Origin: Algibacter sp.
GTDB lineage: Bacteria > Bacteroidota > Bacteroidia > Flavobacteriales > Flavobacteriaceae
Reading direction: 5' to 3'
DNA: 64,000 bases
Assembly: GCA_050294475.1 (NCBI GenBank)
Contig: JBNKOE010000005.1
Span: 11,176-75,175 of the forward strand
The position numbers were made by a program, and so were the translations under genes. The notes beneath the pieces were generated by a model. The model saw only the letters and a list, made by a program, of their open reading frames with translations. It was not told the DNA's origin and searched no databases. Positions 734 to 64,000 of the stretch are shown piece by piece; position 1 is the stretch's first letter, and the number at the start of each line of letters is the position of its first letter.

Positions 734-1333
734 ATGTTATTAAAAAACCATTCCAGCTGCCTTTTAGAATGTGGTACAGACGAAGCAGGTCGAGGCTGTC
801 TTGCTGGTCCTGTAACTGCAGCTGCTGTTATTCTTCCCGAGCATTTTAATAATTCTATATTAAATGACTCTAAACAACTTAGCGAAAAGAAAAGAGATAT
901 ATTAAAACCTATTATTGAAAACGAAGCTCTAACTTTTGGTGTGTCGCATGTGTTTCAAGAAGAAATTGACAGCATTAACATATTAAATGCGTCTATTTTA
1001 GCAATGCATAAATCTATTGAACAATTAACACCACAACCAAAATTTATAATTGTTGATGGTAATAAATTTAAACCTTATAATGATATTGAATTTGAAACTA
1101 TTATTAAAGGTGATGGTAAGTATTTAAGCATTGCTGCTGCATCGGTGTTGGCTAAAACATACCGAGATATTTACATGAATATAATTCATGAAGAATACCC
1201 AATGTATAATTGGAAACAAAACAAAGGTTATCCAACTAAAGAACACCGAGAAGCCATAAGAAAACATGGTATAACAAAATACCATAGAAAATCGTTTAGG
1301 TTATTGCCAGAGCAATTAAAACTAGATATTTAG
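734..1333 (+). CDS. rnhB: Ribonuclease HII
   Basis: [44 protein letters not shown] motifs. Confidence 0.96.
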
Positions 1334-1399
1334 ATTAGCTCATTTTATATATGCTATAAAACGATAAATATGTAGATTTGTAATAAATTAATTCGTTTC

Positions 1400-3829: not shown

Positions 3830-4003
3830 TGTTTTAATTAATTTGTTCTTTATCCCTTTTGTAGGTAAAAAACTAATCTTTATCTTTAACCCAGCTATTA
3901 ATCAATTATTTACAAAAACATTAAATTTTACACTATTTTTCAATAGGCATAACTCTGTCTTATAAAAACATTACGATAACCAAATCGCAAGTCCTCAAAT
4001 CTT

Positions 4004-4039
4004 GAACGCCAAAGCGTGGTTGCTTTGGCGTTCTTTTTT
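4004..4039 (+). terminator. Intrinsic terminator
   Basis: 12-bp perfect stem GAACGCCAAAGC/GCTTTGGCGTTC followed by a T6 run. Confidence 0.75.
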
Positions 4040-4089
4040 GCTATAATTTAAAGTTATTTTAATACTATTGTACTCCTAACAAACAAAAC

Positions 4090-5139
4090 ATGATTTCAAG
4101 AAAAAACGCCTCTATTTCAAAATTTATTATTCATAAAGTTGGTAACAAGTTTAACGATACAAAAAATGCTTTTTCAGACAAGCTAGTAGATTTTGATGAA
4201 GCTAGTTACGATTTAATGCTCCCGTTTCTTTTACGCCCTTTTGGTAGCGTAGTACAAAGCTATCGCTTTAACCACCACGCAAATATTACGTTAAACGAAA
4301 TTAATAGCTATAGCAGTCAAATTTTTAATGATGACGATGCTTTTATAGATGTTTCAAAACATATTGTTACACATTTATACGAGCAATCTACATCGGCAAA
4401 CATAAAAACAGGCGATGTATTAGTAGTTATGTTTGAAGGCATTGAATTTAAAGACATGACTACCAACGCTATTGGTATTTTTAAAATTGAAAGTAAAGTA
4501 AACTTCTTTCAAACCTATTTAGAAAACAACAGCTATGATGTTTTAGTACAAAAAGGAATCAGTTCTAAAAAAGTAGATAAAGGCTGCTTAATTTTAAACC
4601 AAAGTGATACGGAAGGCAATATTATTTTAAGTGTCGATAACAATAGTTATGATGCACAATATTGGATAAATCATTTTTTAAATATTAAATACGCCGATGA
4701 TGCCAATAACCACACACAACAATATATAGAATTGTGCAAAGATTTCTCAACAGAAATTTTAAAAACCAGCTATGGTGCTCAAGAACAAAACACCTTTTTA
4801 GCAAAAACTATCGATTTTTTTAAAGAAAATGAAATAGTAAATGTAGAACGTTTTAAAGAAGAACTTTTTGAAGACGAAAAACAAATTAGGGAGTTTGAAA
4901 ATTATAAAAAAGAATTTGAAGGAGAACAAAACATCGTTTTAAGAAACCAATTTGATGTTGCCGAAGCAGTTGTAAATAAAGAAAAGAAAAAATTTAAAAC
5001 CGATATTAAGCTAGACACCAACATACAAATTAAACTAGATATTGATGCACCTGATGCTTCTTCCGAATATTTAGAGCGTGGATATGATGATGAAAAGAAA
5101 ATGCATTATTACAAAGTGTTTTTTAATGCCGAAAATTAA
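4090..5139 (+). CDS. Nucleoid-associated protein (NdpA/YejK-like 37 kDa family)
   Basis: IIHKVGNK start, HLYEQS..NIKTGDV, GIFKIE, KVDKGCLI and YWINHFL pattern; 349 aa. Confidence 0.75.
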   Translation: MISRKNASISKFIIHKVGNKFNDTKNAFSDKLVDFDEASYDLMLPFLLRPFGSVVQSYRFNHHANITLNEINSYSSQIFNDDDAFIDVSKHIVTHLYEQSTSANIKTGDVLVVMFEGIEFKDMTTNAIGIFKIESKVNFFQTYLENNSYDVLVQKGISSKKVDKGCLILNQSDTEGNIILSVDNNSYDAQYWINHFLNIKYADDANNHTQQYIELCKDFSTEILKTSYGAQEQNTFLAKTIDFFKENEIVNVERFKEELFEDEKQIREFENYKKEFEGEQNIVLRNQFDVAEAVVNKEKKKFKTDIKLDTNIQIKLDIDAPDASSEYLERGYDDEKKMHYYKVFFNAEN

Positions 5140-5231
5140 ATACTAAAAAATAGTGATTTTTATAAAAAAGTAGTCAAAAAAATACGACATCTACAGGCTT
5201 GCTTTTTCGTTTTTTTTCATAACTTGTTGAC

Positions 5232-6032
5232 ATGAATACACCTAACAAGGATACAACTAAAAAGAAAAAATTTAACTACGATAAAGAACTAGCCATATTA
5301 CATGAAGATTTAGTTCATCTTCAAGAATGGATAAAGAAACAAGGTTTAAAAGTGGTTATCATTTTTGAAGGTAGAGATGCCTCTGGCAAAGGAGGCACAA
5401 TTAAACGATTTACCGAACCTTTAAACCCTAGAGTTTGTAAAGTAGTAGCTTTAGGCATTCCTACCGAAAAGGAAAAAACACAATGGTATTTTCAACGTTA
5501 TGTACAGTATTTACCAGCAGCAGGCGAAATGGTGCTTTTTGATAGAAGCTGGTACAATAGAGCAGGTGTTGAAAAAGTTATGGGTTTTTGTACTGATGAA
5601 GAGTATAATGAGTTTTTACGCTCTTGCCCTGAGTTTGAGCGTATGTTAGTGCGGTCTGGAATTATTGTTTTAAAATACTGGTTTTCGGTAAGTGATGAAG
5701 AGCAGGAACGGCGTTTTAAAAACCGTATAAGCAATCCATTAAAACGCTGGAAATTTAGTCCAATGGATTTAGAATCGCGTTCCCGTTGGTTAGAATACTC
5801 TAAAGCAAAAGATAATATGTTTGCACATACTGATACCAAACAAGTACCTTGGTTTGTTGTGAATGCCGATAACAAGAAAAAGGCGCGTTTAAATTGTATT
5901 AGCCATGTTTTAAGTCAGATTCCTCATGAAAAAATGGATTTAAAACCTGTTGAACTTCCTGATTTACCAGACTATAAAAGTTATGTGCGACCACCAATAA
6001 ATTATCAAACGTTTGTTCCTGAGAAATATTGA
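5232..6032 (+). CDS. ppk2: Polyphosphate kinase 2
   Basis: FEGRDASGKGGTIKR Walker A, FDRSWYNRAGVE, WKFSPMD. Confidence 0.96.
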   Translation: MNTPNKDTTKKKKFNYDKELAILHEDLVHLQEWIKKQGLKVVIIFEGRDASGKGGTIKRFTEPLNPRVCKVVALGIPTEKEKTQWYFQRYVQYLPAAGEMVLFDRSWYNRAGVEKVMGFCTDEEYNEFLRSCPEFERMLVRSGIIVLKYWFSVSDEEQERRFKNRISNPLKRWKFSPMDLESRSRWLEYSKAKDNMFAHTDTKQVPWFVVNADNKKKARLNCISHVLSQIPHEKMDLKPVELPDLPDYKSYVRPPINYQTFVPEKY

Positions 6033-6077
6033 ATAAACTTGATTTTGTAAAAATTTTCAGCTACCTTCGTTTAACAT
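5762..6077 (+). repeat. Direct repeat copy 1 (ppk2 3' end plus 45 bp downstream)
   Basis: Matches 8308-8623 at offset 2546 with about 6 mismatches in 316 bp by manual comparison. Confidence 0.95.
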
Positions 6078-6146
6078 TAGCTCTAAAAAAAAGAACTTTC
6101 ACTTCCCACCCACTCCAAGAATAATATTTACGAAAAATGAAATTAT

Positions 6147-6175
6147 TGTCCCAAATAATTGCTAAATTTGGGACA
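6147..6175 (+). promoter_or_regulatory. Inverted-repeat operator overlapping the -7 promoter element of the abiE-like operon
   Basis: TGTCCCAAAT-N9-ATTTGGGACA perfect IR; TAAATTTG (TAnnTTTG) at 6163-6170. Confidence 0.7.
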
Positions 6176-6189
6176 TAAATTATCAAACA

Positions 6190-6783
6190 ATGACTAAATC
6201 AGTTCAAACTAGAATTGAAAACGAAATAAAGTCAATGAAAAAAGGGAGTATTCTATTCCCTTCGAACTTTGATGATATGGGAAATGTTGAAGTTGTAAAG
6301 AAATCATTATTACGACTTGAAAACAAAAAATTCTTAGTAAGACTAGCTCATGGAATCTATTTATACCCAAAACAAGACAAGCTTTTAGGGGTTTTATATC
6401 CGACAATAGAAGAAATTGCAATTGCAATTGCTGAACGAGATAAAGCACGAATTATCCCAACTGGAACAACAGCTCTTAATAAATTAGGATTATCAACTCA
6501 AATTCCAATGAATATTGTTTTCTTAACTGACGGAGCTCCAAGAAATATTGTGGTTGGTAAAAGAACAATAAAATTTAAGCGTACATCTCCAAAAAACTTA
6601 GCTGTAAAAGGAGAAATTACAAGTTTAATTATTCAAGCTCTTAAGGATATAGGAAAGGACAATGTAACAGCAGAGCAATTAGAAAAAATTAAAATACATC
6701 TTGAAAAAGAAAAACAAGAAATAATAGAGCATGATGCTAAACTAGCTCCTGTTTGGATATCAAAAATTATGAAGAATAATTAA
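6190..6783 (+). CDS. DUF6088 / AbiEi-like antitoxin (type IV TA)
   Basis: N-terminal wHTH (KSLLRLENKKFLVRLAHGIYLYP), ALNKLGLSTQIP...FLTDG; directly upstream of an AbiEii-type gene. Confidence 0.8.
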   Translation: MTKSVQTRIENEIKSMKKGSILFPSNFDDMGNVEVVKKSLLRLENKKFLVRLAHGIYLYPKQDKLLGVLYPTIEEIAIAIAERDKARIIPTGTTALNKLGLSTQIPMNIVFLTDGAPRNIVVGKRTIKFKRTSPKNLAVKGEITSLIIQALKDIGKDNVTAEQLEKIKIHLEKEKQEIIEHDAKLAPVWISKIMKNN

Positions 6784-6785
6784 AT

Positions 6786-7784
6786 ATGAAAGCGTTTATA
6801 AATCTTAGCAAAAAAGATAAACTGAACATATTCAATCAAGTCAGTGAAAGAACTGGATTTCCATCTTCTGCTGTTGAAAAAGATTGGTGGGTAACTTTAG
6901 CATTAAATATTATTTTTTCATTGTCTTATTCAAACCATATTGTTTTTAAAGGAGGAACATCTTTGAGTAAAGCATGGAATTTAATTGAACGTTTTTCAGA
7001 AGATATCGACTTGGTAATTGATAGAAAACATTTAGGTTTTGAAGGCGAATTAAGTAAAAATCAAGTTAAAAAATTACGTAAAGCATCTTGTTCCTTTATT
7101 GGAAGTGAATTTTATAAAGATATCAATGATGCTTTAATTAAACTAGGTGTTCCAGATTATGAATTAGTTGTTCAAGAAACAAAAGATACAGATACTGATC
7201 CCTTAGTTATTGAATTACGATATAAATCTTTAACAGAAACATCCGACTATTTAAGACCTAGAGTACTAATAGAAGTTAGTGCACGTTCCTTAATGGAGCC
7301 TGTAGAAAACAAAGCCGTTATTTCTATGGTTTCTGAGGAATTTAAAGAACTTCCCTTTGCAGAAACAGAAGTAACAATACCTGTTGTTTCTCCTAAGCGA
7401 ACCTTTTTGGAGAAGATATTTCTATTACATGAAGAGTTCCAAAAAGACACAAAATTTATACGAGTAGAAAGAATGAGCCGACACTTGTATGATTTAGAAA
7501 AACTTATGGATACAATTCACGGTACAGAAGCTTTGAAAGATGTTAAATTATACAATACAATTGTAACACACAGAAAGAACTTTAATGCCGTAAGAGGAAT
7601 TGACTACGCAAACCATAGCCCTCAATTAATTAATATTTCACCACTAGAAGCAACAATTAAAGAATGGAGAAAAGATTATAAGACCATGCAAGAAAGTATG
7701 TTTTATGGAGGTACCATTAGTTTTGATAAACTAATGGAACGCATTGCAGAGTTGAATACTAGAATTAAAACAATTTCATTATGA
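6786..7784 (+). CDS. AbiEii/AbiGii-family nucleotidyltransferase toxin
   Basis: EKDWWV, VFKGGTSLSK, RFSEDIDL, RTFLEKIFLLHE, RHLYDL motifs. Confidence 0.9.
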   Translation: MKAFINLSKKDKLNIFNQVSERTGFPSSAVEKDWWVTLALNIIFSLSYSNHIVFKGGTSLSKAWNLIERFSEDIDLVIDRKHLGFEGELSKNQVKKLRKASCSFIGSEFYKDINDALIKLGVPDYELVVQETKDTDTDPLVIELRYKSLTETSDYLRPRVLIEVSARSLMEPVENKAVISMVSEEFKELPFAETEVTIPVVSPKRTFLEKIFLLHEEFQKDTKFIRVERMSRHLYDLEKLMDTIHGTEALKDVKLYNTIVTHRKNFNAVRGIDYANHSPQLINISPLEATIKEWRKDYKTMQESMFYGGTISFDKLMERIAELNTRIKTISL

Positions 7785-8228
7785 ATGAAAACGAAATAAG
7801 AGAAGAACTCACCAGAGTTATAGCCGAAGATTCTCAAAACATTGATGAAATTCTAAAACTATCACATAAACTTGCTGCTCTTGATAACGACAGTGTCCGA
7901 TTTAGTGTAGATGTAAGTGTTATTGATAGATTTAGGAACAGAATTGGTTGCGAGACACGAAACTGCTGTTTCTAAATTAATTAAAAATTACTATGATGCT
8001 GATGCAAAATCGGCACCAATTAATTTTTTAAATGTAGATAATATTGGAGGAACTTTAATAATAGAAGATAACGGGAATGGAATAACCAGAGACCAATTAG
8101 TTAATGGTTTCATGAAAATTTCTTCTACTTCAAAAATTCATGAACCCGAATCGCCCATTTTTAAAAGAAAAAGAGCCAGTAAAAAGGAATTGAACGATTT
8201 TAAACACAAAGATCGGGTAATAAACTGA
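7781..8228 (+). pseudogene. Frameshifted, truncated GHKL (HATPase_c_3/MORC-like) ATPase
   Basis: Two ORF pieces join as RFSVDVSVIDR/LGTELV..AVSKLIKNYYDADA..IEDNGNG; the expected GKKGIGRF box has decayed to SKKELNDF and the frame stops soon after. Confidence 0.8.
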
Positions 8229-8307
8229 CGATAATAACACAAACAAAGGAGACTAATTTTGCTCTGAAAGTATTTCAGAAGAATTTGGAGGTATTCGGCT
8301 TTACAGA

Positions 8308-8578
8308 AATGGATTTAAAATCGCGTTCCCGTTGGTTAGAATACTCTAAAGCAAAAGACAATATGTTTGCACATACTGATACCAAACAAGTACCTTGGTT
8401 TGTTGTGAATGCCGATAACAAGAAAAAGGCGCGTTTAAATTGTATTAGCCATGTTTTAAATCAGATTCCTCATGAAAAAATGGATTTAAAACCTGTTGAA
8501 CTTCCTGATTTACCAGACTATAAAAGTTATGTGCGACCACCTATAAATTATCAAACGTTTGTTCCTGAGAAATATTGA
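8308..8578 (+). pseudogene. ppk2: ppk2 3' fragment
   Basis: Encodes the last ~89 aa of Ppk2 (MDLKSRSRW...FVPEKY) without the Walker motifs. Confidence 0.9.
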
Positions 8579-8623
8579 ATAAACTTGATTTTGTAAAAAT
8601 TTTCTACTACCTTCGTTTAACAT
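8308..8623 (+). repeat. Direct repeat copy 2 (duplicated ppk2 3' end)
   Basis: About 98% identical to 5762-6077. Confidence 0.95.
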
Positions 8624-8625
8624 CA

Positions 8626-8662
8626 GATATAAAACATTAAAACAATTTCATATCAAGTTGTT
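8626..8662 (+). other. Degenerate attI-like / secondary insertion site
   Basis: ACAATT-TC-ATATCAAGTTG|TT resembles ACAATT-GTCT-ATATCCAATTG|TT at 63762-63784. Confidence 0.55.
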
Positions 8663-9293
8663 GTAACACATTTAACCAAACCAAGAAACTTAATATTTAT
8701 GAAGAAAATTTTACCAATCATTATTGTCGGAATTATAACTGGAGCAATCGGATTTTTTGCTGGAAAAACAGTTGGATATGACGAAGCTGAAAGAATGCAA
8801 AGTTATCGAAGTGTCGAATCTATTAAATCGGACTTAAAACAACGTGAAACTAAAATGATTTCGACTCTATTAAACGGAACTGCACGAATTGAAACGCGAA
8901 ATGAAGGCGGACTTTTTAGCAGTAAAAAATCGAAATATCTGACTGGTAAAATTCTAAACAACGCTTTAGTTGCGAAAGCAAAAGATGTGAAAGTAATTGT
9001 GACATTTTTATCCAAAACAAAATCGGAAATTGGAAAAGCGGAATTTACTATTTACGAATATATTGAACCTGGAAAGTCGCAATCTTTTGAGAAGAAAGTA
9101 AATGTCTCTCAAGATGTGGCTGAATTTAGCTGGAATATTGTAGATGCAAAAGCGGAATAAAAACGTGTTACAACAATGTATAAAAATAATTGCGGTTTAG
9201 TTCTTAATCAAAGGTAGTTACGTGTTTGATACGTCTGAATTTCCTTCGGAAATTCCTCGCACGCAAACCCGCAACTATTCTTATACGAGACCG
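8661..9293 (+). mobile_element. Solo integron-like gene cassette
   Basis: Starts G|TTGTAACAC (8660-8669), the exact reverse complement of GTGTTACAAC (9165-9174) after its stop codon; ends at G9293|TT. Confidence 0.85.
8699..9160 (+). CDS. Cassette-borne hypothetical membrane-anchored protein (C-terminal Ig-like/FxLYD-like domain possible)
   Basis: N-terminal TM segment; GKILNN..AKDVKVIVTF..YEYIEPGKSQSF pattern. Confidence 0.75.
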   Translation: MKKILPIIIVGIITGAIGFFAGKTVGYDEAERMQSYRSVESIKSDLKQRETKMISTLLNGTARIETRNEGGLFSSKKSKYLTGKILNNALVAKAKDVKVIVTFLSKTKSEIGKAEFTIYEYIEPGKSQSFEKKVNVSQDVAEFSWNIVDAKAE

Positions 9294-9300
9294 TTAAACG
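9165..9300 (+). repeat. attC-like site A
   Basis: TTACAAC-AAT-GTATAAAAATAATTGCGG ... CCGCAACTATTCTTATAC-GAGACC-GTTAAAC; 18-bp stem with 2 mismatches; R' fits GTTRRRY. Confidence 0.85.
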
Positions 9301-9303
9301 AAC

Positions 9304-10031: not shown

Positions 10032-10190
10032 TTAATTCTTCGGATTATTAAGAATAACTAAAGCCGCAATAACACCAGGAACCCAGCCACAAATTGACAA
10101 AATAAAGACAATAATAATAGAGCCACATCCTTTATCTAAAACAGCTAAAGGCGGACAAATAATAGACAGTAAAACTCTCCAGAAACTCAT
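10032..10190 (-). CDS. YqaE/Pmp3-family small membrane protein (52 aa, absent from the ORF track)
   Basis: Manual translation [52 protein letters not shown]; PPLAV and W.PG signature. Confidence 0.88.
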
Positions 10191-10297
10191 GATTTGATTT
10201 ATTTTATTTGATTAATGATACTTACTTGACGTATTAACACTACTAATGTTACAATTTATCATATTCATTTTAAAATAAATTATAGTAGATTAGTAGC

Positions 10298-11350
10298 ATG
10301 TTAAGAAACCTGATTTTGTTGTTATTTTTAATAATGTCTCTTTCTGTAAAAGCACAGTATCATTTTACAGGACGTATAGATAATAAACAATGGCAAAACA
10401 ATGTTTACCTTTCCTTAATTGAAGATTATCGAAAAATTTCTGGGGTTTATTTTGAACAAATTATAGCTAAGGTAAATACCGATAGCTTAGGTTATTTTGA
10501 GTTTTCAGGAAATCAATTAGAAGATGATAACAGAATTTACAGAATTCATGTTGACAATTGTTTTGATAACGAACAAAACAGCAATCATTTTAATGGACAT
10601 TGCAATGATAGTAAAGAAGTTATTTTCATTGCGAAAAACAATGATACCATTGCGTTCCCTTTTTCGTTTGGAAAAGAAATGTTTTGCCAAATTGAATCTA
10701 CCAACAAAAAAGCAACTGCCTTTATTAAAATTGATTCTTTAAAAGATGAAATGAAATTTGCATACAGCGAATTTAGAAGTGAAGCCAACCGAAAACTTAA
10801 TAATAAAAAATGGTTTAAAACATTACAAGATTTTGGTGAAACACAAAACGAACCCATTGCCGAACTTTATACTTATTCATTTTTATCAGATAGAAGAAAC
10901 GATTTTCACAAACATTACCTTGAAGACTTAAAAAACAATCCGTATTATCATAATTTATTAAATCGTTTAATCGAACGCTACCCAAATTCACCTTACACAA
11001 AACAATATCGAGAAGAGTTAAGCTCTGATGAATTTATAATCAATAACAATACATCTACTTCTTCTTTCAACTGGAATTATTTAACTTTCTTTCTATTAGC
11101 AGTTTCGTTAATTATTAATTTTTGGTTTTGGTATACCCAAAAAAAGAATAAAACAATTAGCAAAGCTAAAGAGCAACTTACCAAACAGGAACAAAATATT
11201 CTTAATCTTTTACTTGAAGATAAATCTAATAAAGAAATAGCCGAAGCTGTTTTTGTTAGTGTAAGTACTGTAAAAACACATCTTAACAATATTTACAAAA
11301 AACTGAATGCTCAATCTAGAGACGAAATTAAATCACTATTTAACAGGTAG
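10298..11350 (+). CDS. Membrane-anchored LuxR-type transcriptional regulator
   Basis: Signal peptide, exported domain, TM helix, then LTKQEQNIL..SNKEIAEAVFVSVSTVKTHLNNIYKKL. Confidence 0.85.
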   Translation: MLRNLILLLFLIMSLSVKAQYHFTGRIDNKQWQNNVYLSLIEDYRKISGVYFEQIIAKVNTDSLGYFEFSGNQLEDDNRIYRIHVDNCFDNEQNSNHFNGHCNDSKEVIFIAKNNDTIAFPFSFGKEMFCQIESTNKKATAFIKIDSLKDEMKFAYSEFRSEANRKLNNKKWFKTLQDFGETQNEPIAELYTYSFLSDRRNDFHKHYLEDLKNNPYYHNLLNRLIERYPNSPYTKQYREELSSDEFIINNNTSTSSFNWNYLTFFLLAVSLIINFWFWYTQKKNKTISKAKEQLTKQEQNILNLLLEDKSNKEIAEAVFVSVSTVKTHLNNIYKKLNAQSRDEIKSLFNR

Positions 11351-11457
11351 TTACAAAAAATCAACCTAGTACTAGTACTTATTTCAACCCTAAATAACAA
11401 CCTGTTATTTACTATTTTCATCATGTTTGCATCATTATTAATCAAAAAACAAACATT

Positions 11458-11895
11458 ATGATTTTATCAATTACCAAATTACAAACAGTAAAAACAAAAT
11501 TATTATTAGTAATCTGCTTATTTATTTATGCTGCAAATTTTGCTCAAGAAACAACAGCTAATACAAACGCTGGTGTATTATCCTTTAAAACAGAAATTAT
11601 AGATTACGGCACTATTGAACAAAATGCCAACGGCGAGCGTATTTTTACTTTCACCAATACTGGCAAAAGCCCTATTGTTATTACTAGTGTAAAAACCTCT
11701 TGTGGATGTACAGTACCTTCATATTCTAAAACTCCAATTATGCCAGATGAAAAAAGTGAGATTAAAGTTAAATACGCAACAAACAGAATTGGTACTTTTT
11801 CAAAAACTATCACAGTCATATCAAATGCTTCAGAAAGCAATAAAATATTGCGTATTAAAGGCGAAGTTCTAAAACCAAAACAAGCAAAAAGCTAA
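11458..11895 (+). CDS. DUF1573 domain protein
   Basis: FTFTNTGKSPIVITSVKTSCGCTVP motif. Confidence 0.9.
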   Translation: MILSITKLQTVKTKLLLVICLFIYAANFAQETTANTNAGVLSFKTEIIDYGTIEQNANGERIFTFTNTGKSPIVITSVKTSCGCTVPSYSKTPIMPDEKSEIKVKYATNRIGTFSKTITVISNASESNKILRIKGEVLKPKQAKS

Positions 11896-12014
11896 GTTTT
11901 CACTTGTTTTTATACTAAAATTAAAATCTACCAATAAGTTGTATGCTATTTTTTTGAAAATAATGTAATTTTGCAGCCATCTGTCGCAAAAGACAATATT
12001 CAAAATTAATTAGC

Positions 12015-37767: not shown

Positions 37768-37843
37768 TACTAACTAGTAACAAAACGCTCTCTAAGTAAT
37801 AATTTTTTATTCAAAGTGCTCTAACAATTTCATTGAGTACTTT

Positions 37844-37945
37844 ATAAAAAATAATGACTCTAATTCAGATTTAAGCAATTATGTTAATTTTAAGAATGAA
37901 AAAGAACCAACCACTATTAATTTAGGAATTGGAATTGAATTATAA
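37844..37945 (+). pseudogene. 3' remnant of a cassette ORF
   Basis: Startless frame ...DLSNYVNFKNEKEPTTINLGIGIEL* ending 1 nt before attC-like site B. Confidence 0.45.
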
Positions 37946-37946
37946 C

Positions 37947-38080
37947 GTATGCTAACACAGTATCAAAAATCGCTAATTTTATCCTAAACCAATGTTAGTA
38001 GCTTTGCTTGCTTACGATTTTACTTCGAAAAATACTCGCACACAAACCCGCACTATTCTTATACAATCACGTTGCATGTA
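37947..38080 (+). repeat. attC-like site B (left arm decayed)
   Basis: TGCTAAC-ACA-GTAT... ; right part TACTTCGAAAAATACTCGCACACAAACCCGCACTATTCTTATAC-AATCAC-GTT closely matches site A. Confidence 0.8.
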
Positions 38081-38101
38081 ATTTGAACAAATTAAATATA
38101 A

Positions 38102-39064
38102 ATGAAAAAATTAAATCTGATTTTATTGGTGTTAATCCCAATATTAAGTTTCGGACAAACTGAAAAAGAAACTAACAAAAAGATTTCTGCTGAATTTGAA
38201 AAACACTTCAATTCAGATGAATATCAAAAGATTTTTGACTTGTTTTCGCCTGAAATGAAAAGTGCCTTACCAATTGAACAAACGACTGACTTTTTAAAAG
38301 GACTGAAAAGTCAGACAGGAAAAATTAAAAAAAGGGAATTTATAAAATATGAGCAGACTTATGCCTCTTATAAGACAATCTTTGAACGAACTATTTTTGC
38401 AGTAAATATATCACTTGACAATAATGCAGAAATCAATGGTCTTTTTGTAAAACCTTTTAAAGAAGATAATCTTCCCAAACTTGAAAGAAATAAAACGAAA
38501 CTGGTTTTGCCGTTTAATAGTGAGTGGACAGTAATTTGGGGCGGAGACACTAAAGAATTAAACTATCACGTAGAAAGCGAAGCTCAAAAAAACGCATTCG
38601 ATATTGTAATTACAGACAAAAACGGAAAAACCTTTAAAACAGACGGAAAAACAAACGAAGATTATTATGCTTTTGGAAAAGAATTTATTGCACCTTGTGA
38701 TGCAGAAGTGGTTTTAGCGGTTGACGGAATAAAAGACAACACACCTGGAGAATTAAATCCTATTTACATTCCAGGAAATACTGTAATTTTAAAAACAGAA
38801 AATGACGAATATTTATTCTTTGCTCATTTCAAACAAAATTCGATTGTCGTAAAACAAGGACAAAAAATAAAACAAGGAGAATTATTAGGGCTTTGTGGAA
38901 ATTCCGGAAATTCTTCAGAAGCTCATTTACATTTCCACATTCAAAATGTGGAAGATATAAACAAAGCGACTGGAGTAAAATGTTATTTTGACGAAATAAT
39001 TGTGAATGGAGAATTGAAAAAAGACTATTCGCCAATAAAAGGAGAAGAAATTAAAAACAAATAA
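38102..39064 (+). CDS. Cassette 1: exported M23 peptidase with N-terminal DUF3887-like domain
   Basis: Signal peptide; AFDIV, FAHFKQ, GNSGNSSEAHLHFH. Confidence 0.85.
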   Translation: MKKLNLILLVLIPILSFGQTEKETNKKISAEFEKHFNSDEYQKIFDLFSPEMKSALPIEQTTDFLKGLKSQTGKIKKREFIKYEQTYASYKTIFERTIFAVNISLDNNAEINGLFVKPFKEDNLPKLERNKTKLVLPFNSEWTVIWGGDTKELNYHVESEAQKNAFDIVITDKNGKTFKTDGKTNEDYYAFGKEFIAPCDAEVVLAVDGIKDNTPGELNPIYIPGNTVILKTENDEYLFFAHFKQNSIVVKQGQKIKQGELLGLCGNSGNSSEAHLHFHIQNVEDINKATGVKCYFDEIIVNGELKKDYSPIKGEEIKNK

Positions 39065-39068
39065 AAAC

Positions 39069-39207
39069 TACTGGCAGCAATGGTTATAAGTAATTGCCTG
39101 TTCTCGCCTACTTCTAAAAATACTCGCAGATTTTTAGCTTAGGTGTGTACTTGCAGAGTTAAGTGCTAGACTACGCAACTACTCATAGCCAAACCATTGG
39201 CGTTAAT
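39069..39207 (+). repeat. attC-like site C (both cores mutated)
   Basis: CTGGCAGC-AAT-GGTTATAAGTAATTGC ... GCAACTACTCATAGCC-AAACC-ATTGGCGTTA; AAC changed to AGC and GTT to ATT. Confidence 0.8.
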
Positions 39208-39242
39208 TTTGGAAACAAACTGCAAAATTGAAAACACATAAG

Positions 39243-40343
39243 ATGAAATATTCATTACTAATAATTATCTTGATTAATACAATATTGAGCTATAGTCAAG
39301 AGATAACCATAGAAAAAATAAAATTAACTGAAACAGTTGATAATCGTTATGTTTCTGAAATCCCTAAAGTAAAAGACTTAACCAATAATAAAAATCCTAT
39401 TGTAGAGAAAATTAATTCTCAGATTCTTGATCGTTTTATGATTAATAGCTTTAATCAAAATGAATTAGAAGAATTTAGATGGTACGAAGTTGAATGTTCA
39501 TTTGAGATAAAAGAGAATATTCTTTATATATCATTTGCAGGAGAGTACTATGGAGCATATCCAAATTATGTTGAAGATGAATTTTATTTTGATTTAAAAA
39601 ATGGGGAGCCTCTAAAATTATCCATTATTCCTTTTCAAGCGTTATTCACATTATCTGGATATCTAGATTTTCTTAACAAATATTGGCTTAAAGGAGTTAA
39701 AAAGAAATTTATAGCTGCTATCGAGTGTGCGGAATTTGAGCCTTACTGTAGTTACTATGACATTTATAATTACAGTGTAAAAGATAATAAATTCTCGATT
39801 TCGCTATCAAATGACTGTTATCCTCACGTAGCTCAGGCATGTTCTCCTTATTATGAAATATCTGTAGAACTTGATACTCTTAAACAATACATAAATGAAC
39901 TTGGAAAATATATCCTTTTAGAAAGCAATTATTTATCAGAAACTCCAATTGAAAAGTTTTTAGAAAATGAGAAATTGAAGAAAGAAACAGAAAACAATTT
40001 ATTCATCTTTGGGAAGATTGACGATAAATATCCTTTTAGTATGGCAATAAATATAGATAATCAAGGAGTAATATCTGGTTACTATTATTATGATTTAAAA
40101 CTTCAAAAACTGGTATTGAAAGGACAAAAAAAAGATAATACTATGCTATTAACCGAGACAATTAACAATAAACAAACTGGATTCTTCGAGCTAAATATTA
40201 GCAATACATACAACTCGGAAAGTTTCTTTTTATATGACTCTAACGGAAATGATAAATACTTGATTGGAAAATGGCTGAATTCTGATAAAACGAAGATTCT
40301 TGACATTAAATTTTCAGAAGTAAAAACAAATGATAAAAACTAA
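39243..40343 (+). CDS. Cassette 2: exported hypothetical protein (RsiV/DUF3298-like region possible)
   Basis: Signal peptide; INSQIL...YISFAGEYYGAYP..FYFDLKNG; stop codon overlaps the core TAACGCCAAC. Confidence 0.7.
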   Translation: MKYSLLIIILINTILSYSQEITIEKIKLTETVDNRYVSEIPKVKDLTNNKNPIVEKINSQILDRFMINSFNQNELEEFRWYEVECSFEIKENILYISFAGEYYGAYPNYVEDEFYFDLKNGEPLKLSIIPFQALFTLSGYLDFLNKYWLKGVKKKFIAAIECAEFEPYCSYYDIYNYSVKDNKFSISLSNDCYPHVAQACSPYYEISVELDTLKQYINELGKYILLESNYLSETPIEKFLENEKLKKETENNLFIFGKIDDKYPFSMAINIDNQGVISGYYYYDLKLQKLVLKGQKKDNTMLLTETINNKQTGFFELNISNTYNSESFFLYDSNGNDKYLIGKWLNSDKTKILDIKFSEVKTNDKN

Positions 40344-40455
40344 CGCCAACACTTAGATGTAGTGCATTCGGGTTCTAGCGGCTTGCGAGCGTTTGTAGCT
40401 CGTAAAAAAAGTAGATATAAACTGATTCGCTAAAAAATTAGATTTACTATAACCC
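40341..40455 (+). repeat. attC-like site D, left part only
   Basis: TAACGCCAAC is the reverse complement of the cassette 2 start (G/A)TTGGCGTTA; no right arm or GTT before the next ORF. Confidence 0.6.
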
Positions 40456-40471
40456 TTAAGACTATATAGAA

Positions 40472-41053
40472 ATGCAAAATGAAATTAAATTAACAACAAA
40501 AAAGATTAAAACGGCACAAAAAATAGGTAATGTCTTTTTTGCCATTATACTTATTTTAAATGTCTGGATTATGATTAAACCTTTAATCGTTAATTTTGAT
40601 CTAAGGGATATTGGGGTGTTTAAGCTTCTTAGAAATAATGAGACATATGTAGTACTTGGTGCATTTGTAATATTACTTGGCGTTCGGTTTTTAGTTATTA
40701 ATTTTCTTGCTATATCAGGAGCTAAAATTATAGGAGATAATATAATTATACAAAAACAATTCAAGCCTGATAAGGCTTACTTGTTTAATCAGATAGTTTC
40801 TATTAATTCTATTGGGTATAGAAATGTGCGATTTTTTAAATTATCGATACAAGACAACAATAAAATTAATGAGTGTTTAATATTTAGCACATATTGTTTG
40901 CCAGAATTTGAAAATAAAAATGTAGAACAGGTTTTGATTAGTTTACAAAAAACAGATAGCAGAAATAAAAATAGTAGTATTGAATTACTCAAAAACATAG
41001 ACATAATAAACATATTTTTAGAATTCAAAAAGAGGTTTTCTTTTAGAAAATGA
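40472..41053 (+). CDS. Cassette 3: hypothetical membrane protein
   Basis: Two TM segments; 193-aa ORF between hairpin sites. Confidence 0.65.
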   Translation: MQNEIKLTTKKIKTAQKIGNVFFAIILILNVWIMIKPLIVNFDLRDIGVFKLLRNNETYVVLGAFVILLGVRFLVINFLAISGAKIIGDNIIIQKQFKPDKAYLFNQIVSINSIGYRNVRFFKLSIQDNNKINECLIFSTYCLPEFENKNVEQVLISLQKTDSRNKNSSIELLKNIDIINIFLEFKKRFSFRK

Positions 41054-41145
41054 TTTAAACCCGAATAATTTGTATGTAAGATGTTTACAATTAAGAAATA
41101 TTGAAAACATATAAGTCTTTCATTTCAACATATCGGAATAACAAC

Positions 41146-41282
41146 AAATCGCTAAGTGCTCATAAATAATATGGCAGCCAGTGGTTTGCGAAGGACTGTT
41201 CTTTTGATTATGTTTGATTCAAATTTGGATAGAAGTTTGGTAAAGTGCCAAACTATTCATAGCACAAAACGTTAGGCTCCAT
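41146..41282 (+). repeat. attC-like site E
   Basis: TCGCTAAG-TGCTCATAAATAATATGGC ... GCCAAACTATTCATAGCA-CAAAAC-GTTAGGC; R' fits GTTRRRY; left core damaged. Confidence 0.72.
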
Positions 41283-41313
41283 GCTAAGAGTCGTACACAT
41301 TGATTAAAAATAT

Positions 41314-42354
41314 ATGAATTACCAAAATTATTTACTCACATACCTTGTCTTTATCCTTTTTTGTGGATGTAATTCTAATAGTTCTCAAAATCGAATTAAT
41401 AATAAGACAAAAGAAATTGAATTAATTAAATCTGTAAAAAAAGATACTATTTCATCTGCAATATTGGATAAAGAAAAAATTTCTTCTACAAAAAACACAA
41501 AGATTCAAGACTTACTTGATAAAGTAGAATTATTGCAAGTTCCTTTAACTTATTCTTTTGAAGACACTTTCAATATTAATGCAATAAAAGAAACAAAGCC
41601 TTTATCTGATGAGGTTTTGGATTTACTGAGTGTTGAAAAAATTCACAATGGAGAATATGATTTTAGGGGAAGGCTTTGGTTGTCATTTCAGCTTAATTTG
41701 TCAAAGAATTTTAAAACCTTGGTTTTTTCTATCGAAGATGGTGGTTCGGGCGAGAGTGTACTTGTTAATTATTCAAATGATTTTAAATTTATTGATTATA
41801 GAAGTATTGCTTATGAAGATTATGCAGAAGGATGGTTCTCGTCTAATTCATTGATTGAAAAAAATAGAATGTTTTTATATAAGGATAGCTATACAGATTA
41901 TCCTGCGGAATACGATACAATATGTTTGGTTATAGATGAATATGGAGGAATAGATACCTTACCTGTTGAAAAAACAACCAAAATAGATAATGCAACAGTA
42001 GATGACACATACAATAATGTTCATGAATCAATTAGGGCGTATAAAAAATTAGAAAATATATTAGTAACAGAGAAGTTTCTAATACGGATAGACAGATTAA
42101 ACGATAAAAGTTATCGTTATGCTTCATGGTCGAAAAATCAAAAAGTATCAGAGAAACCAGATTTGGTATTGTTAAAAGGTGAATATTTAAGAGAAGGAAC
42201 TGGTGGTAATTATAGTTATGAATTTAGTAATGGTAACTATCTTTATCGGTGTTCATTTCAGCCGTTAAGAGAAAGTCAGGCTCCTCCTGCAGTTTTAAGA
42301 GTGTACAAAGACGATGAAGAAATTTTATATCAACCTGCAGAAATAATAAAATAA
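41314..42354 (+). CDS. Cassette 4: hypothetical lipoprotein
   Basis: Lipobox-like FCGC; C-terminal IRID...YRYASW...KPDLVL..G..GTGGN.SYEF.NG.Y.Y domain. Confidence 0.72.
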   Translation: MNYQNYLLTYLVFILFCGCNSNSSQNRINNKTKEIELIKSVKKDTISSAILDKEKISSTKNTKIQDLLDKVELLQVPLTYSFEDTFNINAIKETKPLSDEVLDLLSVEKIHNGEYDFRGRLWLSFQLNLSKNFKTLVFSIEDGGSGESVLVNYSNDFKFIDYRSIAYEDYAEGWFSSNSLIEKNRMFLYKDSYTDYPAEYDTICLVIDEYGGIDTLPVEKTTKIDNATVDDTYNNVHESIRAYKKLENILVTEKFLIRIDRLNDKSYRYASWSKNQKVSEKPDLVLLKGEYLREGTGGNYSYEFSNGNYLYRCSFQPLRESQAPPAVLRVYKDDEEILYQPAEIIK

Positions 42355-42360
42355 TGCACG

Positions 42361-42498
42361 AGATTACAACACTTTATAAATTTAATTACGGGTATACTTA
42401 AATTGGCGGCTTTGTCCATTTACTGTTCCTTTTGTTTATCTGAACAAAGAAACGCTTCAAAATTCGCAACGTCAATTTATAAATAATCGTTATGTTTC
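42361..42498 (+). repeat. attC-like site F
   Basis: ATTACAAC-ACT-TTATAAATTTAATTACG ... CGCAACGTCAATTTATAA-ATAATC-GTTATGT. Confidence 0.78.
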
Positions 42499-42530
42499 AT
42501 ATCAAAACGACACTGCAATCATATAACATT

Positions 42531-43114
42531 ATGATAAAATTTAGATTATATACTTTACTAATTTTCATATTAATCCTACAAAATGGATTTGATCAAGGTT
42601 CATTGAAAAAATCATTTCAAGACAAAAACTCATTTAAAATAGCTAAGACAAGGCTGAATGATTTTGGATTAAAGTTTAAAACTCAGGAATCAGAATCTCA
42701 ATTTAAGATAATCTTTAAAGAGAATTCAAAAGTTGATTCTGTAAAGATGTGGAAAAGAATTTAAAACTTGCTTTCACAAAAACTGACCATCCATTAGACG
42801 CCGATTTGCATTTAGCTTTTTCAGTTGCACAAAAAAGAAAAGACACAAAACGGGCTGAACAAATTGCAATCCGATTAGCAAAAGGAGGAGTTCCTTTAAG
42901 ATACTTTAGATATTATAAAAAATCTGATTGGTATGTCAACTTTGTGAAGGATTTTGAAAACTACTCAAATTTTTACAACGAAAATTTCTACCCTGAATTA
43001 AGAGATAAATTTAATTCATTAATAGAAAGAAATATTGAAATTGTTGAGAATGTTTTTGACACTCTATATGAAATTCCGAATAAAGGATTAAGATTAAAAA
43101 ACAAGCTATTTTAA
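42531..43114 (+). pseudogene. Cassette 5: frameshifted exported hypothetical protein
   Basis: ORFs 42531-42764 and 42749-43114 join as ...DSV(K)DVEKNL with a 1-nt shift near 42745; no downstream attC-like site. Confidence 0.65.
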
Positions 43115-43199
43115 GCTAATTTTAAAACAAAGTTTTCATCGTATGGTCTTCCTAATTTTACAATAACAAAGGTCTGTTTTATAAAAACTTAAAATTATT

Positions 43200-63449: not shown

Positions 63450-63740
63450 AATCACAAAGAATACTGTCCCAACAAATATCTATTTGAAGGACAAAAAGGA
63501 AACAAATATAGTGTTACAAGTGTTTTAAATATTATTTCTACAGCAGCTAAAAAAGCTGGAATTTATAAAAAAGTAACACCACACATGCTAAGGCATAGTT
63601 TTGCGACACACCTATTAGAAAACGGAACAGATATTAGGCATATACAAATATTACTAGGACATAGTTCTACTAAAACGACAGAAATTTACACACATGTAGC
63701 AAATAAATCGTTTATGGAAATAAAAGATTTACTATCTTAG
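63450..63740 (+). pseudogene. 5'-truncated tyrosine recombinase (integron-like integrase)
   Basis: Manual translation [19 protein letters not shown]...[42 protein letters not shown]; in-frame TAA at 63447; absent from the ORF track. Confidence 0.9.
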
Positions 63741-63752
63741 TTTTTTATAATG

Positions 63753-63793
63753 TGGATATAGACAATTGTCTATATCCAATTGTTGCCAGTAAT
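63753..63793 (+). other. Candidate attI-like recombination site
   Basis: Perfect 26-bp palindrome TGGATATAGACAATTGTCTATATCCA, then ATTG|TTGCCAGTAAT; G at 63782, 42 nt after the integrase stop. Confidence 0.65.
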
Positions 63794-63807
63794 GTAAACC
63801 AATCTTC

Positions 63808-64000
63808 ATGCTGAAAGGATTATTTAAGAAAAAAACACCTGTAGAAAAGTTTATGGCTCATTTGGATAGAATTTTCCAAACCGAACCTGAATATTACAAA
63901 GAAGAATCAGAAACGGATGGAATTGCTGGAGTTACAAGCATAGTTTATAAAGATATTCCTGAAAAAGGAATGATAACTGGAATTACATACGGACTTTCAC
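63808..64000 (+). CDS. First-cassette ORF, partial; SUFU-like (suppressor-of-fused domain) protein possible
   Basis: MLKGLFKKKTPVEKFMAHLDRIF...YKDIPEKGMITGITYGLS runs off the window; the TYGLS motif suggests SUFU. Confidence 0.55.
   Translation, partial: MLKGLFKKKTPVEKFMAHLDRIFQTEPEYYKEESETDGIAGVTSIVYKDIPEKGMITGITYGLS

Follow-up and report, generated by a model that had tools for sequence, protein, structure and literature searches.

The interval between the TPM gene and der in this stretch very probably holds the remnant of an array of mobile gene cassettes, belonging to an integron-like gene-capture system of Bacteroidota. The system has a XerD-type recombinase and is common in marine Flavobacteriaceae, and its closest known relative is rAID-1 of Bacteroidales. 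The array in the window (the whole stretch of 64,000 nucleotides that was analysed) has decayed: cores are mutated and the genes at both ends are truncated.

Organization of the array

Five ORFs in the same direction, with imperfect palindromes between them, occupy the TPM–der interval, and their order is the one given in an earlier note on this DNA: an ORF tail, site B, c1, site C, c2, site D, c3, site E, c4, site F and a pseudogene. Sites were scored with a covariance model, R1, which was built from 64 metagenome sites and contains no window sequence.

37796..37945, + strand: startless ORF tail (5'-truncated remnant of a cassette ORF), 50 codons, no Met
37936..38080, + strand: site B; R1 77 bits, E 1.5e-13; nhmmer E 8.5e-12
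38102..39064, + strand: c1, secreted DUF3887 and M23 peptidase, 320 aa (Pfam PF13026, PF01551)
39058..39205, + strand: site C; R1 70 bits, E 4e-12
39243..40343, + strand: c2, exported protein, 366 aa, without Pfam domain
40341..40467, + strand: site D; R'' box intact, interior and 3' box degenerate
40472..41053, + strand: c3, membrane protein, 193 aa, without Pfam domain
41135..41277, + strand: site E; R1 15 bits, E 0.5, position and strand as expected
41314..42354, + strand: c4, lipoprotein, 346 aa, only ~10 homologues
42349..42498, + strand: site F; R1 45.7 bits, E 3e-7
42533..43114, + strand: pseudogene of the last cassette, 3'-truncated and read in two frames (to 42764; from 42749)

The earlier note had counted about five cassettes here; the palindrome-separated ORFs are confirmed, and R1 detects sites B, C and F strongly. 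It had also described the array as cut at both ends, which agrees with the startless 50-codon tail before B and the truncated last gene that no site follows. The tail is open from 37796 to a TAA at 37943-37945 and ends shortly 5' of the 5' box of site B. In the last gene, the second frame (121 aa) aligns to residues ~48-145 of ~268-aa homologues, relative to which the gene has a frameshift and lacks ~120 C-terminal residues; model R1 found no site 3' of it (43115-43199). The reported start of each ORF some 30-47 nt past a core holds at B (31 nt), C (47 nt), E (43 nt) and F (44 nt) but not at D, where a GTT core cannot be defined. Likewise, c1 ends 4 nt short of the box that follows it, c2 has its stop codon within the following box and c4 ends ~7 nt from its own, as had been stated, but c3 ends ~90 nt away.

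Pfam scans and reading by eye of the ORFs of at least 100 aa revealed no recombinase domain close to the array, and a tblastn search of the whole window with IntI1 gave as its sole match a 95-aa C-terminal recombinase remnant 20 kb away; on this evidence the array is integrase-less, as had been proposed.

TPM2 and der were both found in 66 of 80 related species, with a gap between them of 110 bp to more than 9 kb, and the five array ORFs are absent from the loci of all 80 relatives. The suggested comparison of gene content thus reveals a hypervariable gap, and the finding that was to count against a cassette array, conservation of the five ORFs in order across distant taxa, was not made, the ORFs occurring in 0 of 80 loci. 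Every contig found to encode these exact proteins (4 to 8 per look-up) carries the same array, and these contigs give no sign of a recombination event in the lineage of the window itself.

Two of the cassette genes are informative in other genomes. There are 165 homologues of c2, mainly on short contigs; the cassette is widespread in Bacteroidota, and the homologues in loci L135 and L136 are flanked by sites. The best homologue of c4 is from Geofilum rhodophaeum (Marinilabiliales), at 57% amino acid identity. For the homologues of c2 and c4 in other orders, homology starts exactly at the R' core. The Geofilum c4 cassette carries a group II intron, antisense, at the R'' boundary; group IIC-attC introns are described as inserting antisense at a site boundary (PMC3001079). 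Where homologous cassettes occur in different genomes, both R boxes are kept and the site interiors are unrelated, which a simple integron model does not predict. No immunity domains were found by Pfam in the window cassettes.

The site family and its arrays in metagenomes

A further site, A, belongs to a single intact cassette of the window, which lies outside the array.

8620..9302, + strand: single intact cassette; attI-like hairpin, GTTGTAACAC (8660), 153-aa ORF (8699-9160), site A
9154-9302, + strand: site A, full-length; R1 133 bits, E 6e-25

The R'' box of site A, GTGTTACAAC, closes 10/10, and the site folds at -19.9 kcal/mol on the bottom strand versus -17.1 on the top strand. A 5' arm pattern common to sites A and F matches 37 metagenome contigs, for which a rough estimate of chance matches is well under one. 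The matched element is ~135 nt long, has different flanks in every contig, and defines a family with AAC...GTT cores and a covarying stem of ~14 bp; among 64 sites the AAC is present in 64 and the GTT in 60. Pairing in the stems amounts to 97.1% of cells versus 87.2% in shuffles, with 0 of 500 shuffles reaching the observed values, and slid controls are 31-59% paired. Twelve pairs show double changes, which support both stems. At two positions there are conserved pairs that read as G.T wobbles on the bottom strand and as A.C mismatches on the top.

In marine metagenome contigs these sites form arrays in which ORFs and sites alternate (11 co-oriented sites in L124, up to 12 in L128); within an array all sites have one orientation, the same as most ORFs. 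Adjacent sites obey a closure rule: the 7-mer immediately 5' of AAC is complementary to the 7-mer that follows GTT in the previous site. Complementarity is 7/7 in 22 of 26 adjacent pairs, 6/7 in three and 5/7 in one, and the controls average 2.6/7 (a site against its own R') and 2.8/7 (random pairs). L100 and L105 share a cassette of 576 nt at 99.65% identity, set between unrelated flanks, and its breakpoints, between CC and GTTGTAAAAC at one end and directly after ...ATAAACGTTGGC at the other, are at GTT cores. The closure rule and this cassette in two contexts demonstrate the cassette logic of integrons.

Most cassette cargo has no Pfam domain; one L124 cassette carries a T6SS immunity domain, Tdi1_C. 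Arrays have 27-32% G+C versus 30-35% in their flanks. Lone site copies lie between housekeeping genes (site A, L135), and target-site duplications were not seen at the sites. The L119 array, like that of the window, begins without an adjoining recombinase or attI.

Sites of the window array

All R1 matches in the window (A, B, C and F) point the same way. Pairwise similarity exceeds that of shuffles for A-B, A-F and B-C and the R1 E-values are very low, so the likeness of the sites is not due to chance; folding energies of whole spacers are no better than those of shuffles. Site B has the R'' box GTATGCTAAC, with AAC at 37954-37956, and an R' core GTT at 38071-38073 followed by GCATGTA, and it has a 31-nt stretch in common with site A at 93% identity. 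Site F has the R'' box AGATTACAAC, with AAC at 42368-42370, and GTT of R' at 42489-42491.

At site C the R'' box is TACTGGCAGC, with AGC for AAC at 39076-39078. The GTT that the earlier note took for its core was misplaced: the real core is ATT at 39196-39198, six bases upstream, a mutated GTT. L135 and L136 read GTTG[G/C]CGTTAATTTT at this position, and homology starts exactly there. Site E has AAG for AAC in R'' (41154-41156) and GTTAGGC in R' (41271-41277). Its 3' arm was found by nhmmer (E 0.004), homology to the Geofilum copy of the next gene, c4, begins at this GTTAGGC, and salt-marsh runs contain the 5' arm of site E in other contexts, there with a proper AAC.

Support for site D is confined to its 5' box, TAACGCCAAC (40341-40350), which contains the c2 stop codon. 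Its reverse complement matches the start of the c2 cassette, (G/A)TTGGCGTTA, at 7/7 variable positions, and L135 carries an identical box. R1 gave 12 bits, at noise level, and did not detect the site, and its similarity to the other sites is not significant in either orientation.

Closure in the array is 7/7 for c2, 5/7 for c1 and 2/7 for both c3 and c4. It holds in the window for cassettes A and c2 only and, within the array, for c2 only.

The associated recombinase and attI-like site

In L111, L130 and L050, a recombinase gene lies upstream of the array on the same strand as the cassettes, followed, 40-90 nt past its stop, by an attI-like hairpin and GTT. In L111 (gene at 489-1619, 376 aa) and L130, the first cassette closes onto the attI-like GTT 10-mer. 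A remnant of this layout, which is that of rAID-1, is present at 63456-64000 of the window, with the hairpin and core at 63752-63791; the array under study has lost any such recombinase gene.

63456..63740, + strand: C-terminal 95 aa of a tyrosine recombinase, truncated pseudogene (tblastn; also the IntI1 match)
63752..64000, + strand: attI-like palindrome TGGATATAGACAATTGTCTATATCCA, then ATT-GTTGCCAGTAAT, then a first ORF (read from the sequence)

The stump is the only recombinase gene in the 64 kb. It matches the L111 recombinase (376 aa) over residues 282-376 at 71% identity, and residues 1-281 have no match in the window (both by tblastn). The first ORF after the palindrome starts at 63810 and runs past the window end.

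The best curated profile for the recombinase is NF040815 (238 bits, cut-off 220), with the XerD and XerC profiles close behind, and it falls below both the XerC and the XerD equivalog cut-offs. On the integron integrase profile of NCBIfam, TIGR02249, it scores 198 bits (cut-off 265) with a match in two stretches. When it is aligned to IntI1 by BLASTP, gaps fall at IntI1 residues 191-219 and 244-255, the location of the IntI-specific domain. NCBI names the family 'tyrosine recombinase/integron integrase', and it is very common in Flavobacteriaceae. Judged by these profiles and alignments, the recombinase is XerD/XerA-like and lacks the IntI insertion.

Proposed mechanism

The site family with its covariation, the arrays, the closure rule, the cassette found in two contexts and the linkage to a recombinase are shown by the data above, and they suggest how the system may work. 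A cassette begins with the TT of one GTT core, ends with the G of the following one, and consists of one ORF and then a folded recombination site. In the circle, the cassette-specific 7-mer and AAC would pair with the GTT of the cassette's own start and the complementary 7-mer, giving the R stem. Inside the R stem lies an unpaired spacer, which is asymmetric (one arm has 2-3 nt, the other 5-6 nt); then come the covarying L stem, ~14 bp long and with the two conserved bottom-strand G.T wobbles, and the variable interior. The upstream recombinase would cut at the GTT core, excise cassettes as circles and re-insert them, presumably acting on the folded bottom strand in the manner of integron integrases. 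The chemistry, the choice of strand and the circular intermediate are what we infer; for use of the bottom strand, the asymmetry of wobbles and mismatches and the folding energies of site A give only a hint.

Alternative explanations

One could read the region as an ordinary operon for envelope proteins, with the hairpins as terminators or RNA regulatory elements, since its five co-oriented ORFs encode secreted, membrane or lipoproteins and lie downstream of a lemA-TPM operon. We find this scarcely credible: the intergenic hairpins have zero matches in Rfam and lack T runs, the ORFs are missing in 80 relatives with the same flanks, c2 and c4 have a patchy distribution across orders, and the same repeat builds cassette arrays elsewhere. 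That the palindromes are a selfish REP- or MITE-like repeat, spread between unrelated genes and involving no cassettes, would fit an imperfect palindrome that is high in copy number, well conserved and intergenic at many loci, and that also occurs singly between housekeeping genes. Such a repeat should be found in either orientation, independently of ORFs and with target-site duplications. The copies within an array share one orientation, which matches that of most ORFs, and the box preceding a site is complementary to the beginning of its unit on the other side of the ORF. ORF and site move as one unit with breakpoints at cores, duplications were not seen, and a recombinase and an attI-like site accompany the repeats. 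The selfish-repeat reading is highly improbable.

A remnant of a cassette array remains our preferred reading, and two questions about it concern its class and its activity. A CALIN of a classical integron, that is, ordinary attC sites served by an IntI-type integrase encoded elsewhere in the genome, would account for the AAC/GTT cores, the R'-L'...L''-R'' layout, the 60-140 nt sites with one ORF each, the textbook GTTAGGC core of site E and the 'integron integrase' in the NCBI family name. It is nevertheless very unlikely: the only recombinase family linked to the arrays is the one described above, with its low and split TIGR02249 match and its gaps over the IntI domain, and it is co-directional with the cassettes. 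Moreover, in surveys made with IntegronFinder, Salinibacter is essentially the only one of the Bacteroidetes reported to have integrons (PMC9024848), and a model made from 11 class 1 attC sites recovers an unseen attC (43 bits) and none of the flavobacterial sites, although this model is narrow, since it also misses the attC of the VEB cassette. As to activity, an intact recombinase elsewhere in the genome might still work on the array in trans, given that sites B and F retain AAC and GTT cores and good scores, that cassette A is intact, and that the recombinase family is so common in Flavobacteriaceae and the window is only 64 kb of the genome. This seems rather unlikely to us, as closure is lost for c1, c3 and c4, both end genes are truncated and the array is identical in every contig found (4 to 8 per look-up). 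Inactivity of the window copy is the more probable state: three of its cores carry mutations (C has AGC and ATT, E has AAG), site D is barely recognisable and has no definable R' core, only c2 closes, and the recombinase is a 95-aa stump.

Comparison with known systems

Sedentary chromosomal integrons of Vibrio carry arrays with VCR-type attC sites (PMC4889954, PMC9024848). The present system is like them and like CALINs in its long arrays of ORF and site, with a site family that is homogeneous within a lineage; in the AAC/GTT cores, crossover at GTT, R and L stems, unpaired spacer and variable interior; in cassette ends that close into a complete site, with an asymmetry towards the bottom strand; and in scattered integrase-less fragments and antisense group II introns at the site boundary. 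Imperfect palindromes with R/L boxes, AAC/GTT cores and a variable centre, the anatomy of integron sites, are found here (window sites B, C and F fit), as are discrete units of ORF and site closing at GTT cores (26 of 26 pairs at 5/7 or better) and an attI-like site beside the recombinase gene, which is co-directional, unlike most integrons. The array-linked recombinase differs in that it lacks the IntI-specific additional domain and in being encoded co-directionally with the cassettes, not divergently. In the circular form, the R stem would be 10 bp with a free 7-mer instead of RYYYAAC/GTTRRRY. The two spacer arms measure 2-3 and 5-6 nt, wobble pairs and not demonstrated extrahelical bases are the source of the asymmetry, and the narrow class 1 attC model misses the sites. 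The array had been said to resemble a CALIN. As a working description this stands, with three strong and two weak sites in 4.6 kb and the nearest recombinase remnant 20 kb away, but only operationally, since the sites do not appear to be classical attC; it does not stand as family membership, because the recombinase lacks the IntI-specific insertion and scores below the integron integrase cut-off and the narrow attC model misses the sites.

With XerC/XerD and the archaeal XerA dimer resolvases, the recombinase has in common its best-scoring profile, NF040815, and a layout of SAM-like and catalytic domains. Unlike them, it has an extra N-terminal region of ~105 aa and adjoins cassette arrays, with truncated remnants in some genomes, and it is below both the XerC and XerD cut-offs.

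The closest relative, rAID-1, comprises recombinase-associated acquired interbacterial defence arrays of Bacteroidales, whose intergenic sequences are conserved, repetitive and, according to the authors, reminiscent of integrons; recombinase homologues of more than 50% identity are reported only from Bacteroidales (Ross et al., bioRxiv 10.1101/471110; PMC12247911). Membership in rAID-1 calls for a recombinase at least 44% identical to B. fragilis BF9343_RS08045, for cargo of orphan immunity genes and for arrays lower in G+C than the recombinase and the genome. The window cargo has no recognisable immunity domains, whereas one metagenome cassette of our family has the Tdi1_C domain, a possible likeness to rAID-1. 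Our arrays differ in coming from Flavobacteriaceae, although related cassettes occur in Marinilabiliales and further Bacteroidota, and in the site anatomy and closure rule described here, which the accessible rAID-1 text does not contain. With recombinases and motifs likened by description only, the two systems share the phylum, short co-oriented genes, repetitive motifs conserved between these genes, and a tyrosine recombinase of XerD-like type that is encoded 5' of the array in the same direction; a 5' XerD-like recombinase co-directional with at least two short genes is found in L111, L130 and L050.

The array and its sites

The genes between the TPM gene and der (37947-43114) follow the order described in the earlier note: an ORF remnant, an M23 peptidase, an exported protein, a membrane protein, a lipoprotein and a pseudogene, separated by imperfect palindromes (sites B to F). 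The note's finding proved real, and its reading as something like a CALIN, an attC cluster without an integrase, was right in substance. A Pfam scan returned no domain for the second to fourth cassette ORFs (c2 to c4); c2 has 165 homologues spread over Bacteroidota.

Array features and window sites, each site on the same strand as the other window sites (R1, covariance model from 64 metagenome sites, with no window sequence)
ORF piece before site B: 50-codon open frame, no start codon
c1, first cassette ORF: secreted DUF3887 + M23 peptidase (Pfam)
Site A (separate copy, 9154-9302): R1 133 bits, E 6e-25
Site B: R1 77 bits, E 1.5e-13
Site C: R1 70 bits, E 4e-12
Site D: R1 12 bits, noise level
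Site E: R1 15 bits, E 0.5
Site F: R1 45.7 bits, E 3e-7

A gapless repeat search of the window recovered no site, and an Rfam search of its spacers gave no match. Sites A and B are 93% identical over a stretch of 31 nt, sites B and C 95% identical over 20 nt, and local alignment scores for A-B, A-F and B-C lay above those of all shuffles. The possibility that D is an inverted site was rejected, its alignment scores being at shuffle level in either orientation. On folding of both strands, a check proposed in the earlier note, whole spacers folded no better than shuffles on either strand (z -1.4 to +1.6), and among delimited sites A and C alone gave long hairpins.

The 3' core of C was put by R1 at ATT (39196-39198). 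The GTT within GGCGTTAAT, which would imply a long spacer, was rejected as the core, because both the R1 alignment and the c2 homologues give the ATT six bases upstream. In the contigs carrying these homologues (L135 and L136), homology to the window runs from GTTG[G/C]CGTTAATTTT on and the upstream sequence is unrelated, which confirms the core at ATT.

A repeat family with a covarying fold

Sites A and F have in common a 5' arm, TTACAAC-N2-3-KTATAAAWWTAATTRCGG, that matches 37 marine metagenome contigs; by our rough estimate, well under one chance match would be expected in that collection. The matches represent one conserved element of about 135 nt, and the flank past its GTT and purine differs in every contig. 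The element comprises an ORF stop, a variable 7-mer, AAC, a 2-3-nt spacer and the arm GTATAAAAATAATTGC, then a centre with a small hairpin, the arm GCAACTATTCTTATAC, a spacer of 5-6 nt and GTT plus a purine. Many further diverged copies were retrieved with a profile and then with a covariance model. The sites form co-oriented arrays, with 11 in 6.9 kb of contig L124, up to 12 in L128 (ORF-site-ORF-site), and three to six each in L099, L104, L100, L106, L107 and L110. A short form of about 60 nt, GCCAAC-ACA-GTCTAAACTAA...TTAGTTTAGAC-GCACC-GTT (L100 785-835), does the same job as the 135-nt form, so that these sites, like attC sites, vary in length.

In the consensus fold of the bottom strand, AAC/GTT lies in a 5-bp stem that leads through an asymmetric internal loop into a 14-bp stem; 11 of the 14 pairs of this long stem have two-sided changes. 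Paired cells amount to 97.1% (87.2% in shuffles), the observed pairing measures were reached by none of 500 shuffles, and sliding the partners lowers pairing to 31-59%. Two conserved G.T wobbles of the bottom strand become A.C mismatches on the top strand, which leaves the bottom strand with the better hairpin.

Comparison of salt-marsh metagenome contigs with the array region yielded low-depth fragments of the same organism and a few site copies elsewhere, and no joints. Near-identical pieces of C (39142-39190) and E (41156-41194) occur on different flanks in salt-marsh and sediment runs (X5, X7 and X8); these copies include an E-type arm with a proper AAC and a C-type central hairpin with compensatory changes.

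Cassette closure and movement

The arrays obey a simple rule: the 7-mer directly before the AAC of each site is reverse-complementary to the one that follows GTT in the site before it, with an ORF lying in between. Among 26 adjacent pairs this closure was 7/7 in 22, 6/7 in three and 5/7 in one, as against means of 2.6/7 for sites compared with their own GTT flank and 2.8/7 for random pairs. A unit running from TT to the next G would therefore, if circularised, form a complete site with a 10-bp R stem.

One unit of 576 nt is 99.65% identical in contigs L100 and L105, where its flanks are unrelated. The matching stretch begins at CC|GTTGTAAAAC and ends at ATAAACGTTGGC|, and the unit is direct evidence of cassette movement. 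Likewise, L118 and L125 have a cassette and its site in common and diverge directly after the GTT. Homologous cassettes in different genomes keep both R boxes (R'', the AAC box, and R', the GTT core), and their site interiors are unrelated. In the c2 cassettes, for example (window 40344-40471 and L135 9100-9270), the start and closing box are the same and the interior of the following site is unrelated. Within L135 the site before the c2 homologue resembles the site after it, and sites within one contig are similarly alike. The unrelated interiors may stem from homogenisation acting within a genome, or else from exchange at both boxes.

A single intact cassette (window 8620-9302), made up of a 153-aa ORF and the full-length site A, adjoins lipB. 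It closes at 10/10. A hairpin and GTT resembling the attI-like sites found after recombinase genes precede it, and no recombinase gene is present beside it.

Decay of the window array

Within the array, closure is 5/7 for c1 and 2/7 for both c3 and c4, and cores are mutated in C (AGC and ATT) and E (AAG). The 5' box of D, TAACGCCAAC, complements the c2 cassette start exactly, and an identical box is found in L135; closure thus persists in the c2 cassette, and D is a genuine site whose interior is ruined. The startless ORF tail reported before site B is the 50-codon frame listed above. At the other end, the last gene lies in two frames, the second of which matches residues 48-145 of homologues that are about 268 aa long; this gene is thus both frameshifted and 3'-truncated. 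The reduced closure, mutated cores and truncated genes at both ends point to a decayed array.

The TPM2-der locus in relatives

The window belongs to a member of the Flavobacteriaceae, and its Der protein is at most 94% identical to those of the closest species representatives (Algibacter, Flaviramulus and Tamlana). Across 80 related species the gene order alaS / M23-merR-lemA-TPM-TPM ... der / era is widely conserved, and both the second TPM gene (TPM2) and der were found in 66 of the 80 loci. The comparison of this interval in relatives, also suggested earlier, showed a variable gap, from 110 bp to more than 9 kb; conservation of the five array ORFs was not seen, since tblastn matched none of them at any of these 80 loci. 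The locus is thus hypervariable and its present content lineage-specific. The short gaps of relatives did not reveal the insertion point, and a motif search and three small nhmmer profiles found no further site copies in the 80 der loci except a central motif in L052. Strain polymorphism was sought by exact-protein look-ups of c1, c2, TPM2 and Der (4 to 8 contigs each, from two NCBI assemblies and Logan assemblies of sequencing runs), and every contig had the same array.

Recombinase and attI-like site

Neither a Pfam scan nor reading by eye detected a recombinase domain in the window ORFs. A tblastn search with IntI1 from a real class 1 integron identified a 95-aa C-terminal remnant at 63456-63740 and a full homologue of 376 aa in L111. 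In L111, L130 and L050 the cassettes lie downstream of the recombinase gene and share its strand. The stop of this gene is followed within 40-90 nt by a hairpin, after which comes a GTT 10-mer; closure of the first cassette onto this 10-mer is seen in L111 and L130. In the window the same hairpin, here a perfect 26-nt palindrome, comes after the remnant; next are the core GTTGCCAGTAAT and an ORF that continues past the window end. A look-up with uxaC past the window end gave same-organism contigs that stop within 700 nt.

The L111 recombinase passes NF040815 (XerA / integron integrase; 238 bits, cut-off 220) and fails TIGR02249 (198 bits vs 265, with the match split in two), and it is gapped where IntI1 has its specific insertion. 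Homologues number in the thousands, many on contigs of 1-3 kb; among the best 120, all named ones are from Flavobacteriaceae. In L130 (3559-5325) a divergent gene for a large serine recombinase adjoins a truncated copy of the array recombinase and may mark the insertion that truncated it.

Cargo and neighbouring elements

Most cassette ORFs have no Pfam domain. Domains found among 20 metagenome cassettes are Tdi1_C (T6SS immunity), PadR, esterase, DKNYY, DUF6624, DUF6985 and TPR repeats. The protein with the Tdi1 C-terminal domain is encoded by a cassette at L124 820-1251, which links the cargo to the orphan-immunity arrays of gut Bacteroidales.

Other mobile elements were observed nearby. L136 has three identical elements (1066-5318, 10079-11967) with an IS91-like Y2 transposase and a small MrpR-like tyrosine recombinase, inserted in and around an array of small co-oriented ORFs that includes a c2 homologue. 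In the window, the last ~90 codons of ppk2 (5232-6032) are repeated almost exactly at 8300-8578, and between the copies lie a DUF6088/AbiEii toxin-antitoxin-like pair (6190-7784) and a HATPase gene fragment (7917-8228). The region 5232-8578 looks like an insertion that carries its own copy of the target gene's end.

Discussion

Starting from the window, the analysis arrived at a repeat family whose cassette logic is clear (end closure, GTT breakpoints and a covarying folded site). The family is linked to a recombinase that has thousands of homologues in marine Flavobacteriaceae. Should this recombinase be shown to act on the sites, integron-type cassette capture would not need the IntI-specific domain, and a large pool of accessory genes of abundant marine heterotrophs would become open to study. 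It would also explain assembly breaks at these loci, given the many homologues on short contigs, and the model and the simple closure test would serve for annotating such arrays.

Integrons are, to our knowledge, regarded as nearly absent from Bacteroidota. Our literature search found no description of such arrays in Flavobacteriaceae, and in IntegronFinder surveys the Bacteroidetes yielded almost nothing (PMC9024848). When built from 11 real class 1 attC sites, a covariance model picked up an unseen attC and none of the flavobacterial sites, although this narrow model also missed the attC of a VEB cassette.

A further parallel with integrons is provided by c4, which has 57% amino acid identity to a protein of Geofilum rhodophaeum, a member of a different order. 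The DNA homology starts at the GTTAGGC of site E and ends 9 nt past the stop codon, and the Geofilum copy retains the closing box (GAGCCTAAT vs GTTAGGCTC). At that point, 9 nt past the stop of the c4 homologue, an antisense group II intron (L087 7040-7640, minus strand; Rfam RF00029, RF02001), in which no intron-encoded ORF was found, interrupts the cassette inside its closing box. Such insertion behaviour has been described for the group IIC-attC introns of integrons (PMC3001079). This small contig further has a diversity-generating retroelement (RT + bAvd), IS21 and an IS3-family fragment.

The rAID-1 arrays of Bacteroidales have a matching layout: the recombinase is XerD-like, the array is co-directional with it and the intergenic sequences are repetitive (10.1101/471110, PMC12247911). 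The portions of these reports accessible to us call them 'reminiscent of integrons' and contain neither site anatomy nor evidence of cassette mobility (10.1101/471110, PMC12247911).

In summary, the window array is a fossil, yet one indicating a variant of the integron principle that is widespread. The cassette system works like an integron; its recombinase fails the test that defines an integron integrase. We consider it more likely than not that marine Flavobacteriaceae, and Bacteroidota more widely, harbour a large undescribed lineage of integron analogues, missed by standard integron finders, in which a XerD/XerA-like recombinase without the IntI domain captures and shuffles cassettes, each with its own 10-bp R stem, via folded sites of ~60-140 nt. 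The window would then hold three of its states, a truncated platform, an intact single cassette and a fossil array, and the lineage would either have reinvented the integron by convergence or be a sister lineage with rAID-1 among its members.
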